From a virus, in the IMG/VR virus record IMGVR_UViG_3300032116_000102, positions 21,560 to 85,559 of that record: DNA of 64,000 nt; one strand, given 5' to 3'. This document shows positions 3,408 through 30,393 of the stretch, piece by piece (the stretch's first letter is position 1; each line of letters starts with the position of its first letter). The notes under the pieces were generated by a model. The model had not been told where the DNA came from. It worked only from the letters and a program-made list of their open reading frames with translations, and searched no databases. A program made the position numbers and the translations under genes.

Positions 3408-4042
3408 ACGTTCAACTCATTTGGTCTACACCCAATGCAGAAGAAATGATTACGAGAATGGCGCGTGTTTCAGCACCCAGCAATCAAGACAACATGGATA
3501 CTGCACCACGCCTACTTAGGTATCTGATCAATAACAAACATTGGTCACCGTTTGAGATGGCAAACATGTGCGTTGAGATTGAAACAACACGTGCAATCTC
3601 ACCTCAAATCTTGCGTCATCGTTCCTTCTCGTTCCAGGAATTCAGCCAGCGCTATGCAGATACCACTGAGCTTGGCTCTGCTGTAATACCGCATTTGCGT
3701 CGGCAAGATTACAAGAACAGACAGAACAGTATTGATGACCTATCAGCAGAAGACATTGCTTCTTATTACAGACGCATCAGTGCGTTGTATGAAGATGCTG
3801 AACATCTCTATCGCGAGATGCTAAGCAACGGCGTGGCAAAGGAATGTGCTCGTTCCATTCTGCCACTTTCGACACAGACACGTCTTTTTATGAATGGCAC
3901 AATCAGGTCATGGATCCACTACCTTGATCTCAGAACTGACAATGGAACTCAACTCGAACACAGACAAATTGCAGGAGAAATCAAACGAATCTTCTGCAAA
4001 CAATTCCCCATCATCGGAGAAGCAGCCTTCTCCGAAGAATGA
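3404..4042 (+). CDS. thyX: FAD-dependent thymidylate synthase ThyX
   Basis: RHRSFSFQEFSQRY signature; HWSPFE; AKECARSILP. Confidence 0.95.
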   Translation: MNVQLIWSTPNAEEMITRMARVSAPSNQDNMDTAPRLLRYLINNKHWSPFEMANMCVEIETTRAISPQILRHRSFSFQEFSQRYADTTELGSAVIPHLRRQDYKNRQNSIDDLSAEDIASYYRRISALYEDAEHLYREMLSNGVAKECARSILPLSTQTRLFMNGTIRSWIHYLDLRTDNGTQLEHRQIAGEIKRIFCKQFPIIGEAAFSEE

Positions 4043-4246
4043 CACACCATGGCTTGATTGTATGGATGGGTTTAAATACAGTGAACCCTCTGATTCAGTT
4101 AAAGAACCAGAGGATGACGTAGACAACTGGCGATCAGAAGGTCGCGGTTGTTTGTTTTTCTAATTGTTTGACGGCATGCTTGGATTCCACATCCTTGCGT
4201 GCCGCTTTCTTTTTTTTATCTACCAGGTAAATGATTAATGCTTTGT

Positions 4247-4399
4247 TCATTTGATTTGACCTCCGGTGACATATGGAAAGTAGCAGATGTTACGGTACGT
4301 CAGGCAGAGCCAGGGGCGGTGGGCTAAGTTCCACCAGGCCCTGTCTGCCTTGGCCTGATCCTCCTGTTCGTACTTGACACCACGGTATGTAAGCGTCAT
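4247..4399 (-). CDS. DUF4278-like small cyanobacterial protein
   Basis: MTLTYRGVKY start with an internal LTYR repeat. Confidence 0.7.
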   Translation of the reverse strand: MTLTYRGVKYEQEDQAKADRAWWNLAHRPWLCLTYRNICYFPYVTGGQIK

Positions 4400-21548: not shown

Positions 21549-21799
21549 CTAACCCAGTGCTCAAGCCTGTGGCAGTTGCAGCAAAGCGGGATGCATTTCT
21601 CGATCTCTTGCTCGACCCTGCTCCAGGCGTAGCCATGATTCACCATGCTTGAGATGTTGTTATCCTTATCACCTACGTGGTGGAACTCAAGGACACGGTG
21701 ATCATCCAACCCACACTGCTTGCACTCCAAAGTCTTCTTGTACTCCAGAAGCTTTTGTCGGTTTTTATCGATACGTTTTTTGGCATCAACCCAAGCCAC
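21545..21799 (-). CDS. small HNH protein
   Basis: CKQCG..LEFHH..CIPLCCNCHRLEH. Confidence 0.8.
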   Translation of the reverse strand: MAWVDAKKRIDKNRQKLLEYKKTLECKQCGLDDHRVLEFHHVGDKDNNISSMVNHGYAWSRVEQEIEKCIPLCCNCHRLEHWVS

Positions 21800-27005: not shown

Positions 27006-27422
27006 AGGTCAATGCGTAGATACAGCTCGCCTTCTTGGATCAACTTTTCCTCGAAGGCAGCTGCTTCTTGCGTTTCAATATCGTTAAAGGCCACACCATT
27101 GCGGCTTCGGTGTTCAAGCCTTATAAACGACTTGAGATCAAGGCTTGGATCACAGTAATAGAAACGAGTAATGTTGCAAGACATACAGTCAAAGCTTCCC
27201 AGTTCAATTTGATGGCAATCCAAACGATTTGCAGGAGGACCCCCAGGCAGCCCCACCACCCCTCAATCGAAAGCCTAATGCGCGTCAATGGATCCAATGG
27301 GGGACTAGCTCAACGACGACTGTAATGAGCATAGACAATAAAATAGTCAAAACGATGAGCTTGAATTCCTGCATTCTTAGTTTTATATCTGCTACATTGT
27401 AACCAATATACAAAACCTGTTA

Positions 27423-28277
27423 ATGGTTGCTAAACTGAATACATCAGATCCTTGGATTCAAGCCAAAGAAGAGCAACCGGAAGTAATGCGGTCGATTAAT
27501 CGGACCGCAGCCAGGATAACACTTAACGGAAAACGTCACTACACAACTCCGTTACCCACTGGACCTGCACCGTCCGTAACCACTATCATCAGCGAGACAG
27601 CTTCCGAAGCAAACAAACGGAAGCTTGAAATGTGGTCGAAAGCAAATCCAGGTGTCAAAGAACAAGCAGCCGAGCGGGGCACTGCCATTCACTATGGTAT
27701 GGAGCAGTACCTCAAAGGGAATAAAACGCCGGAAATCAAAGATGAATATGCGGACTTTTGGGCTGGCATGCCGGCGATTCTGGATCAATTCCAGGAAATC
27801 CTTTGGGCCGAGTCTCCAGTTCTGGATAAGTTTGACTTTACTATTGGTGCTGATGACGTTGCTCGCGTCTGGGGTTGTGACGGAGAAGGACGCGCTTGGG
27901 CTGGTGCTCCTGATATTATTGCTGTGGCTAACAATAAGCTGACGCTTGCTGACTTAAAAACCAGCGTCAAACCCTATAGCCGCAAGTGGCCTAAAGACCT
28001 GGAAAAAGGTTCGCCTGAATGGCGTGATCTCCTCGGGGGTCATCTTAAATTCAAAAAGACTTGCAAACAACTCGCTGCGTATGATATAGCTATTACCCAG
28101 ACATTGGGAATAAAAGTTCAACAAGCAGCAATCCTAGTTTCTACACCAGTAAGAACTCAGGTTTTTAAAATATCACGCAGGTTCTTAGACTCTTTGCATG
28201 AAGATTGGTACAAAATTGTTGAAGAGTATTATGCGCAAATAGAAAATTGCAATGCGTATGACCCTGATCTAATTTAA
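27423..28277 (+). CDS. PD-(D/E)XK exonuclease
   Basis: PSVTTII..RGTAIH..AGAPD..ADLKTS..QLAAY. Confidence 0.85.
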   Translation: MVAKLNTSDPWIQAKEEQPEVMRSINRTAARITLNGKRHYTTPLPTGPAPSVTTIISETASEANKRKLEMWSKANPGVKEQAAERGTAIHYGMEQYLKGNKTPEIKDEYADFWAGMPAILDQFQEILWAESPVLDKFDFTIGADDVARVWGCDGEGRAWAGAPDIIAVANNKLTLADLKTSVKPYSRKWPKDLEKGSPEWRDLLGGHLKFKKTCKQLAAYDIAITQTLGIKVQQAAILVSTPVRTQVFKISRRFLDSLHEDWYKIVEEYYAQIENCNAYDPDLI

Positions 28278-28280
28278 AAA

Positions 28281-28775
28281 ATGCAAAACAAAGTCTGTAC
28301 AATTTGCAAAGAATTAAAAGATTTGTCTTGCTTTAGCAAAGCGGGCAGAAAAGACGCTTTACGTAGTAATTGTAAAACTTGTGACGCTAAAAAGTATAAA
28401 GAATGGAAAAATAAAAATAGAACAAAATATCTACGTAGTTCTAGTAATTCTGGATTAAAAATACGATATGGAATCGGGCTTGAAGAATATGAAAAACTTT
28501 TAGCGCAGCAAAACCATAGCTGTAAAATTTGTGGAACAAAAAAACCTGGCAGAAAAGATGTTAAAAGATTTGCTGTAGATCATTGCCATAAGACAAACAA
28601 AATCAGAGGCTTGCTTTGCATGGCATGCAATACTGCAATAGGACTGTTAAACGAAGACCCAAAACTTTTTGATGCTGCTCAAAACTATTTGAGAGAGCAT
28701 CGAGCAGACCCTTGGTATGAAAGTACAACAGGCGGCAATCTTGGTATCGACGCCTGTTCGTACTCAAGTCTTTAA
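28281..28775 (+). CDS. endonuclease VII-type homing endonuclease
   Basis: CKICG..VDHCH..IRGLLCMACNTAIG; AT-rich. Confidence 0.9.
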   Translation: MQNKVCTICKELKDLSCFSKAGRKDALRSNCKTCDAKKYKEWKNKNRTKYLRSSSNSGLKIRYGIGLEEYEKLLAQQNHSCKICGTKKPGRKDVKRFAVDHCHKTNKIRGLLCMACNTAIGLLNEDPKLFDAAQNYLREHRADPWYESTTGGNLGIDACSYSSL

Positions 28776-28884
28776 GATCTCCAGGCGATTCCTGGATTCC
28801 TTACGGGATGATTGGCTCAAGATCGTTGCCGAGTACTACACCCAAATTGAAAATTGTGGTGTTTATGACCCTGATCTCATTTGA
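28699..28884 (+). pseudogene. displaced 3' end of the exonuclease gene (61 codons plus stop)
   Basis: Translates IEQTLGMKVQQAAILVSTPVRTQVFKISRRFLDSLRDDW...YDPDLI*, 52/61 identical to 28092-28277. Confidence 0.95.
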
Positions 28885-29382
28885 TCACTGGAAGCCGTAG
28901 TTCATGTTGCTGCCCAGTCCAATATTTGGAGTGGTGCCGAGTCCAATATTGGGTTTGGTGCCAAGGGCGGAACCGGTTTGTGCAGCAACCGACTGCGAAC
29001 GCATCTGGTCCAGCATGTTCATGTAGCTGGACTGAGTACCAGTGCTGCCGCCAAGCTGAGTTGGTTTCGCTGCGCCACTGGGAGTTGGCTTGGTAGGAGC
29101 AGGACGCTTGGGCGCTGCAGTTGCACCGGTCGTTGGACGTGCTCCTGCTTTACCTTTGTTTTCTACTGCGCGACGCACTGGTTTTTCAGCCGGGCGAGCC
29201 GCTGGTTTTGGAGTACGTGCAGTAGGTGCCGCAGCTTGGCGTGGAGCTGGGGTGCCGGCTTTGGCAGTTGGGCGCTTGGCTTCTTGTTTTTTCGTAGGTG
29301 CTGGCATTGCTTTCTTGCCTGCTTTATCAACAGCACCCTTGACAGGTTCTTTGCGTGCTGCGCCGGTACGCTTCTCTTTCAT
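28885..29382 (-). CDS. Lys/Ala/Pro-rich basic protein
   Basis: Low-complexity composition resembling histone H1. Confidence 0.55.
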   Translation of the reverse strand: MKEKRTGAARKEPVKGAVDKAGKKAMPAPTKKQEAKRPTAKAGTPAPRQAAAPTARTPKPAARPAEKPVRRAVENKGKAGARPTTGATAAPKRPAPTKPTPSGAAKPTQLGGSTGTQSSYMNMLDQMRSQSVAAQTGSALGTKPNIGLGTTPNIGLGSNMNYGFQ

Positions 29383-29422
29383 GGTTATAAAACTTATAAA
29401 CTAATTATATCGAAACAACGTT

Positions 29423-29707
29423 ATGTTCAAACTTCTATTCAAAGACATCATCGATGCCGTAATCAAATGGTGGAAACGCACCTGGTTTGAAGCCAAAATT
29501 AAAGCTAAATTGGATATGATCGAGCTTGAAAACCGTATTGAATCCGAATTAGAACGAGAAGAACAAAACAAGCCAATCTACAGAGAGCATCCGATTGATC
29601 CTGTACTCCAAGCCGGTGAATCCCAAAAGCTGGGTGGAGCCATGCAATTGACAGCGCCTTGGTATAAAGATGAACAGCAACAAGATCAGCAAACTGGAGA
29701 GTCGTAA
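29423..29707 (+). CDS. hypothetical protein
   Basis: 94-aa ORF. Confidence 0.5.
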   Translation: MFKLLFKDIIDAVIKWWKRTWFEAKIKAKLDMIELENRIESELEREEQNKPIYREHPIDPVLQAGESQKLGGAMQLTAPWYKDEQQQDQQTGES

Positions 29708-29904: not shown

Positions 29905-30393
29905 ATGCATAAACTAACTGATTTTAAGGTCTGTCGCAAAGGCTTGCATCAATACCCTTTAAACCTAAGGCAATGCCCTGAGTGTAGAAAAATAGCTAAA
30001 GAAAAATGGTACAAAAATAATAAAGAACTTTGTAAAACATTTAGAAAAACTTGGAACGAAAAAAATAAACAACAAAGAAACAAATTAAATCAAAAATGGA
30101 AGCAAAATAATAAAAATAAAATAAACGCAATAAATTCTAAACGTCGAGCAAACAAAAGAAAGGCTGTCCCTGCTTGGGCTGATTTAAAAGAAATATTTAA
30201 AATTTATCAAGAGGCTGTAGAGCTCACCAAAAAAACGGGTGTTAAGCATGAAGTTGATCACATATATCCGCTTCAAAATAAATATATGTGCGGTTTGCAC
30301 GTACAAGAGAACTTGCAAATTTTAACAAAGAAAGAAAATCTTGCAAAAGGTAATCGAACTTGGCCTGGGCAGCTTGATTGCCAAAGAGAATAG
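29905..30393 (+). CDS. HNH homing endonuclease
   Basis: HEVDHIYPL..CGLHVQENLQILTKKENLAKGN; AT-rich; flanked by a 15-bp direct repeat. Confidence 0.9.
   Translation: MHKLTDFKVCRKGLHQYPLNLRQCPECRKIAKEKWYKNNKELCKTFRKTWNEKNKQQRNKLNQKWKQNNKNKINAINSKRRANKRKAVPAWADLKEIFKIYQEAVELTKKTGVKHEVDHIYPLQNKYMCGLHVQENLQILTKKENLAKGNRTWPGQLDCQRE

Follow-up and report, generated by a model that had tools for sequence, protein, structure and literature searches.

An endonuclease gene lies between two copies of an exonuclease gene end

The stretch of DNA analyzed here, the window, comprises 64,000 nucleotides (positions 21,560 to 85,559) of IMG/VR virus record IMGVR_UViG_3300032116_000102, an 85.6 kb record rated as complete by CheckV. 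Its virus is an S-EIVl-like freshwater cyanophage, the closest isolate being the Arctic freshwater cyanophage S-EIVl, with 64% protein identity in the exonuclease. At one locus of the window, a predicted exonuclease gene is followed by an intact endonuclease VII (EndoVII)-type gene, and the last 61 codons of the exonuclease gene occur on both sides of the latter. The in-use copy is referred to as copy A and the orphan as copy B. In window coordinates, the features of the locus are as follows.

27423..28277, plus strand: in-use exonuclease gene, 284 amino acids (aa), a chimera of the native 5′ part (to ~28084-28091) and a foreign 3′ end
28092..28277, plus strand: copy A, the foreign, AT-rich last 61 codons and stop that form the working exonuclease end, with Thr at codon 225
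28092..28698, plus strand: 607-bp inserted cassette (replacement 3′ end and endonuclease gene), missing from empty-site alleles
28281..28775, plus strand: open reading frame (ORF) of 164 aa for a putative EndoVII-type (DHHRN/F-CphI-like) free-standing homing endonuclease
28699..28884, plus strand: copy B, the orphaned native last 61 codons and stop, with its frame intact, proposed as a right homology arm

Contigs from public sequencing runs X1, X3, and X15 were used to check the junctions and the empty site. The arrangement is real, as independent contigs in these three runs cross the junctions with 0 differences. The interval 27423-29400 was present in whole or in part in 20 public runs from 16 coded studies (freshwater or lake, 2017-2024), some of them labelled “fungus metagenome,” and 16 of the 20 held at least half of its sampled words. 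In run X1, the exonuclease 5′ part had a summed depth 2-8x that of the cassette, so related cassette-free phages outnumber the window’s phage there.

Copies A and B are each 186 nt long (61 codons and a stop). They share 52 of 61 residues and 130 of 186 bases (69.9%), with identical bases at 52/62, 55/62, and 23/62 of first, second, and third codon positions, respectively, when the stop codon is counted. Synonymous sites between the two are saturated (pS 0.9-1.1), and no similarity was found between the sequences upstream of the two copies. Their compositions also differ. Copy A has a GC content of 0.35 (0.27 at third codon positions, GC3) and resembles the endonuclease gene at 0.34, whereas copy B, at 0.46 (GC3 0.50), resembles the exonuclease 5′ part at 0.49 (GC3 0.44). 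The same match between an AT-rich copy A and the endonuclease gene is seen in all three lineages with this layout, which are described below.

An initial annotation of this DNA had pointed out the repeated gene end around an EndoVII-type gene, the AT-rich in-use copy, the orphan composed like the rest of the gene, and the heavy synonymous change between them, and these observations were borne out. Its description of the in-use copy as recoded, however, overstates the case. Random allele pairs of this 3′ segment have a median identity of 72%, with 34% of pairs at or below 70%, and identity at third positions is 0.26-0.36, where composition alone predicts 0.24. The 69.9% identity of A and B thus falls within the ordinary spread of allele pairs; recoding was dismissed as a special signature, and copy A is an ordinary distant natural allele rather than a designed recoding. 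The longest runs of identical bases shared by A and B do not exceed 14 (7-14 across the three lineages), so the direct repeat should be stable and the insert not readily deleted.

Copy B matches endonuclease-free relatives and an empty site

To place the two copies, we used a comparison set of 80 related IMG/VR loci with the exonuclease gene (L-numbers denote loci). The endonuclease is sporadic in this set: about 70 of the 80 have none at the exonuclease gene and run colinear with the window without the cassette. The nearest relatives in the 5′ part (L005, L006, L010, and L014, ~91%) are endonuclease-free, and their 3′ ends are 85-89% identical to copy B and 67-74% identical to copy A; 85-89% identity to B was likewise found for the 3′ ends of L017, L005, and L006. 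A sliding-window comparison with the nearest relatives shows identity of ~90% giving way to ~70% at 28070-28090, and in a tree of the 5′ part, the rows nearest to the window are endonuclease-free genomes with B-type ends. The clade in which copy A falls by its 3′ end is rejected by the 5′ data (approximately unbiased [AU] test, p-AU 0.037).

An empty site was recovered directly. A contig of run X15 passes from 28084 directly to 28699, with 28085-28091 replaced by 7 letters of its own, and reads colinearly through the joint (...Y D I A | I E Q...), which coincides with the start of copy B. In runs X1 and X3, endonuclease-free alleles with B-like ends coexist with the cassette-bearing form, the latter recovered across both junctions with zero differences. 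Because the 3′ ends of relatives, the sliding window, the 5′ tree, and the empty-site contig agree, copy B is, as judged by sequence comparison, the genome’s own end, and copy A with the endonuclease gene is a 607-bp insertion. This is the outcome that the initial annotation had anticipated for a comparison with endonuclease-free relatives.

The inserted gene encodes a putative homing endonuclease

The endonuclease ORF starts 3 nt past the exonuclease stop. Its residues 1-139 come from the cassette, and its last 25 codons and stop come from the orphan, read in another frame. In Pfam, Endonuclease_7 (PF02945) was the only family above the cut-off (E 2e-22, residues 59-138); the protein also matches PHROG “endonuclease VII” families with E values down to 4e-37, and its sequence matches in the PDB are Hpy99I and T4 EndoVII. 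EndoVII-motif homing endonucleases such as F-CphI have conserved D, H, H, R, and N residues and CX2-4C / CX2C zinc ligands (PMC6083498). The window’s protein carries D100, H101, H103, R109, and N117 together with zinc-binding cysteines 81, 84, 113, and 116, as well as an N-terminal CxxC...CxxC module. The D/H/H/R/N and cysteine set is invariant among three sequences of this family, and the catalytic residues are intact in all lineages. By its Pfam assignment, the enzyme belongs to none of the WHO, LAGLIDADG, or GIY-YIG families.

No Rfam match with E up to 1 was found in 27300-29500, whether a group I intron or another RNA, and the endonuclease lies outside any intron or intein, as a separate ORF after the exonuclease stop. 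The target is thus repaired without splicing, as first proposed: the exonuclease is kept whole by replacement of its end. Taken together, ORF 28281-28775 is an EndoVII-motif free-standing homing endonuclease by its sequence features, with site-specific cleavage as its predicted activity. A candidate endonuclease promoter inside copy A (TTGGTA-16-TATTAT, 28205-28232) was also considered. Alleles with a linked endonuclease score no higher than others at these columns, and promoter-like sites were no more numerous than in shuffled sequences, so the candidate was dropped.

The target gene product matches PHROG 298 “exonuclease” (E 6e-30). Searched directly, the protein has no sequence match in Pfam or the PDB, and 22 of 47 remote homologues match PF12705, a PD-(D/E)XK family. 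The motifs are D164, D177-x-K179, and Q216xxxY220, of which D164, K179, Q216, and Y220 are invariant in the 47 homologues. An AlphaFold (AF2) model with a predicted local distance difference test score (pLDDT) of 92.8 has human MGME1 as its top structural match in Foldseek (E 5e-10), followed by RecE, AddAB, and Cas4. The protein is best described from its model as an MGME1-like PD-(D/E)XK nuclease with a predicted exonuclease role. In the same model, junction residues 223/224 lie inside a long helix (198-228), just past the catalytic Q216xxxY220, and residues 224-284 form two strands and a helix with pLDDT 97-98. The replaced part would therefore be structurally integral to the protein.

The layout recurs in three lineages with intact orphans

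A metagenome scan with the endonuclease as query yielded loci L163-L166 and relatives. The same order of exonuclease, copy A, endonuclease, and 61-codon orphan was found in L163-L165 (endonuclease 90% identical in aa) and in L166 (81%), and the join falls at the identical base in the window, L163-L165, and L166, that is, in three lineages and five independent assemblies. In L164, the endonuclease stop TGA spans the junction (...GAA A|ATT GAG, read AAT TGA); the orphans of the window and L166 begin with ATC GAG instead, and the endonuclease ORF continues for 25 codons. Relatives with an endonuclease of the window’s family (hereafter type 1) and no orphan (L027, L083, and L168-L173) have endonucleases ending ...YLEEYS* or ...YLQDYQQE*. 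The right edge of the cassette therefore clips the last few native codons of the endonuclease.

In a tree of the 77 unique 3′ ends, built on 186 nt only, the three A copies (window, L163, and L166) form a starred clade (97/84) with the ends of L083, an orphan-less carrier of the same endonuclease family, and of the endonuclease-free L009. The initial annotation’s view of the mobile unit as a new 3′ end plus endonuclease agrees with this grouping of copy A with ends linked to the same endonuclease family and with their shared AT-richness. The three orphans fall in the other deep clade, interspersed among endonuclease-free alleles. They are polyphyletic: the L166 orphan nests with L017, L026, and L028 (96/90), and starred branches force at least two origins. 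Every orphan is closest to an endonuclease-free allele that is in use (L017 for the L166 orphan, at 92.5%), whereas identity between orphans is 81-85%. The orphans are also undecayed, with no stops or frameshifts and a ratio of nonsynonymous to synonymous change (dN/dS) of 0.04-0.05, as in working copies. Relaxed constraint in the orphans was ruled out, as each has 0-1 private residues, the same as working copies. Intact, scattered orphans are as expected if the orphan were renewed from the recipient at each transfer. A 15-row protein tree gave no resolution on whether the orphan-bearing endonucleases form a single clade.

Some loci depart from this pattern. In L174 (731-1140), similarity to the type-1 endonuclease is split over two overlapping segments that lie in different frames, a pattern suggestive of a frameshifted gene, and in L165 (~704-1123), the zinc-ligand Cys116 is replaced by Tyr in a protein otherwise near-identical to those of L163 and L164; both are signs of endonuclease decay. 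A Thr225, A-type 3′ end also occurs at endonuclease-free loci, namely L009 (3670-3855), whose end is sister to the in-use copy of L166, and L039, L070, L073, and L076. These could be resistant alleles left after endonuclease loss or the natural donor lineage.

Gene ends vary with linked endonucleases of two families

Across the comparison set, the exonuclease 3′ end is more diverse than the rest of the gene. Third-position diversity is 0.57 in codons 224-284 versus 0.41 upstream, and pairwise identities correlate with a Spearman rho of 0.66 for the two 5′ halves and 0.38 for the 5′ part against the 3′ end. When allele pairs with at least 92% identity over codons 112-223 are compared, almost every one of those whose 3′ ends match least (0.67-0.79) includes a locus with an endonuclease:

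Window and L006: 0.67
L168 and L033: 0.72
L173 and L049: 0.72
L072 and L060: 0.75
L016 and L037: 0.79

The endonuclease and the 3′ end thus appear from these alignments to travel together.

A second EndoVII family (type 2), ~35% identical to the first and separated from it with 100/100, likewise lies downstream of this exonuclease gene. L019, L021, and L028 (~3845-4292) carry, behind the type-2 endonuclease, an orphaned copy of the last 22 codons, which is out of frame and supplies the endonuclease stop; in L110 (~714-1113), the endonuclease is followed by an in-frame orphan of ~5 codons (...PDLI*). The 22-codon orphan of L028 shows non-synonymous decay (K>R, V>I, E>K). Each endonuclease type is associated with a residue variant at its orphan boundary, by Fisher tests that take no account of relatedness:

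Type 1, Thr/Ser at codon 225 (orphan boundary): linked alleles 9/9, others 7/65, p 1e-7
Type 2, non-Lys at codon 264 (orphan boundary): linked alleles 5/6, others 8/68, p 4e-4

The orphans carry the common Glu225 and Lys264, and most empty alleles have Glu225. We infer that the orphan boundaries mark the cut sites and that the linked boundary variants may confer resistance. That the foreign end removes the cut site is suggested by the codon-225 association (9/9).

Neighboring genes

Directly past the orphan lies a hypervariable region with the following feature.

28885..29382, minus strand: low-complexity, Ala/Pro/Lys-rich ORF, 165 aa

No nucleotide homologue of its body turned up in 240 related loci. 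The protein matches of this ORF are only 33-48% identical, occur in few loci, and are otherwise absent, and it has no family match. Further on, within the interval between the exonuclease and primase genes, is a second free-standing EndoVII/HNH-like gene on the plus strand (29905-30393, 162 aa, GC 0.22-0.37), which matches PHROG 26577 (E 2e-24) and PHROG 1035 “endonuclease VII” and has homologues at the equivalent place in L039 (64%) and L023/L024 (50%). The exonuclease-primase interval is an endonuclease hotspot.

A probable homing cassette with its own right arm, and the alternatives

We consider it probable that the locus holds a 607-bp homing cassette inserted at codon 223/224 of the exonuclease gene, with the orphan acting as its right homology arm. 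This interpretation is favored because of the architecture of the locus, the foreign copy A and native copy B, the empty site, the junction shared between lineages, the conserved catalytic residues, and the co-transfer of gene end and endonuclease. The foreign 3′ end would keep the exonuclease whole, with the native end displaced to directly after the endonuclease gene. During co-infection, the endonuclease would cut cassette-free, Glu225-type alleles at or near codon 224, and the break would be repaired on a cassette-bearing genome, with the 5′ part of the exonuclease gene as the left arm and the orphan as the right arm. Such repair would copy the cassette in and push out the recipient’s own 3′ end as a new orphan, and the product, with its linked Thr225-type end, is predicted to be resistant to the enzyme. 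Sequence patterns are the basis here for deducing that the enzyme cuts, where it cuts, that the product resists it, and that the orphan serves as an arm.

The first such composite probably arose by one-sided, illegitimate repair, in which the copied strand was joined to the broken end and the recipient’s 3′ end was left from the break onward. The reason for proposing one-sided repair is that sequences past the exonuclease gene diverge too far from phage to phage to offer a right arm; a precedent for such illegitimate repair of a break from one side is documented for T4 introns (PMC2988022). As there is no homologous DNA past the exonuclease gene, a classical endonuclease placed after its stop would often lack a right homology arm. 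The composite, once formed, would carry its own right arm inside a conserved target gene.

Several observations weigh against this interpretation. The cut site is deduced from the orphan boundary only, and Thr225 marks the whole A-type clade, where it travels with I230 and H259, so its association with the endonuclease is not phylogenetically independent. The AU test is marginal, and the 3′ trees are short. Between the three lineages, the cassettes vary (A 81-84% in nt, endonuclease 81-90% in aa) about as much as their backgrounds (5′ flank 83-88%); no near-identical cassette, the expected mark of recent homing, was found in two different backgrounds. The orphan-bearing junction is rare in IMG/VR, where two degenerate patterns found no match in other contigs, and ordinary recombination among co-infecting phages could also scatter orphans among empty alleles.

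In a rather unlikely account, a single illegitimate repair in a common ancestor was inherited vertically as a frozen scar, the orphan is junk, and the endonuclease may no longer home. It would explain why cassette divergence between lineages parallels background divergence, why the window and L164 are neighbors in the 5′ tree, and why the junction is rare, and the clipping of the endonuclease’s own last codons at the right junction is accident-like. A divergence of 16-19% should, however, have left stops, indels, and non-synonymous changes, and all three orphans are intact with the low dN/dS given above, a state hardly expected of a neutral relic that dates back to the divergence of the cassettes. 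Their placement closer to working endonuclease-free alleles than to each other (96/90 for the L166 orphan with L017) also speaks against a scar, as do the endonuclease catalytic residues intact in every lineage.

Two further explanations are much less probable. Polarity could in principle be the reverse, with copy A as the genome’s own end and the endonuclease, trailing a donor fragment (copy B), inserted after an intact gene; the endonuclease does start just past a complete exonuclease ORF, as it does in orphan-less L027, L083, and L168. We regard this as very improbable, given that identity to relatives drops at 28070-28090 rather than at the stop codon, that the GC content of A is that of the endonuclease gene and the GC content of B that of the 5′ part, that in the empty-site contig a B-type end follows the 5′ part, and that A-type ends accompany the type-1 endonuclease at every locus. 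Slightly less credible still is an artifact or a local event, that is, an assembly chimera or an in situ tandem duplication that diverged later. Metagenome assemblies can merge strains at conserved segments, but zero-difference contigs from independent runs cover both junctions, and the layout recurs in five independent assemblies of three lineages. A tandem duplication is further at odds with the saturated synonymous sites, with the differing composition of the copies, and with copy B being closer to other genomes than to copy A.

Relation to known mobile elements

The closest precedents for the proposed homing cassette lie outside phages. WHO elements at the yeast aldolase gene FBA1 comprise an endonuclease and an upstream 3′ end; the downstream fragment was proposed as an essential homology region, and cleavage was shown experimentally (Coughlan et al. 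2020, eLife, PMC7282813). As in those elements, the endonuclease here sits between a full-length gene with a replaced 3′ end (resistant in WHO) and an orphaned 3′ fragment, and the 3′ part of the target is more diverse than, and phylogenetically discordant with, the 5′ part. WHO proteins, in contrast, are intein-like (LAGLIDADG and zinc finger), nuclear, and home in meiosis, whereas the enzyme here is a small EndoVII-motif viral protein whose homing would occur in co-infection and whose cleavage is predicted. The cyanophage locus also has no tandem cluster of old elements, and its endonuclease ORF ends inside the orphan.

The parallel that the initial annotation drew to elements of fungal mitochondria holds, though the WHO elements are closer still. 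Gene hybrids formed by mobile ORFs (mORFs) are known from atp6 of Allomyces macrogynus and from atp6, atp9, cox2, and nad3 of Glomus (Beaudet et al. 2013, PMC3630166), and C-terminal duplications of cob and atp6 occur in Endoconidiophora mitochondria (PMC6279837). There too, a foreign C-terminus and an endonuclease ORF precede the native C-terminus, and it is the native end that clusters with close relatives, while the inserted one falls elsewhere. Identity between copies is similar, at ~63% nt and ~91% protein for Glomus atp6 and 70% and 85% here. The mORF enzymes, however, are LAGLIDADG or GIY-YIG proteins of organelles, often fused in frame, whereas here a separate EndoVII ORF follows a 3-nt gap in a phage, and population data include an empty site from the same samples.

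Among phage systems, SegF, SegG, and MobE of T4-like phages (PMC2988022) and F-CphI of cyanophage S-PM2 (PMC6083498) are likewise free-standing, promoter-less endonucleases adjoining their targets. Co-conversion of flanks and presence or absence among relatives are shared with this intronless homing, and the DHHRN motif is shared with F-CphI. The orphan-less loci L027, L083, and L168 fit classical intronless homing. In that process as described for T4, flanks are replaced rather than duplicated, and no orphaned gene end results; the string “duplicat” is absent from the text of the T4 review (PMC2988022). No published phage example of the present layout was found in full-text searches, which turned up only mitochondrial, chloroplast, and yeast cases. 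The element works, as far as its sequence allows a comparison, like WHO and mORF elements and is not a member of their enzyme families, with the arm and resistance roles assigned by inference.

More tentatively, and leaning slightly toward doubt, we propose that phages carry WHO-like elements with an obligate, constantly renewed orphan arm, and that two EndoVII families acting at two sites drive the diversity of the exonuclease 3′ end. If so, a free-standing endonuclease could spread even among genomes whose sequences past the target gene are unrelated, and an arms race of nuclease against target would be under way beside the catalytic QxxxY helix, with the unusual silent and amino-acid diversity of the 3′ end as its outcome.

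For annotation, elements of this kind account for orphan gene fragments and chimeric, fast-evolving gene ends beside phage HNH and EndoVII genes. The locus also offers a compact test system, with an enzyme of 140-164 aa, a 40-bp candidate site, natural sensitive- and resistant-type alleles, and an empty site in the same lakes; the cultured relative S-EIVl carries a sensitive-type allele. For the phages themselves, the finding means, on the strength of population data, that a homing endonuclease of the free-standing kind can settle within a gene that looks essential by bringing along a spare gene end, with no need of an intron or intein, and it suggests that the displaced end is kept, perhaps, as the only conserved right-hand homology beside a hypervariable region.

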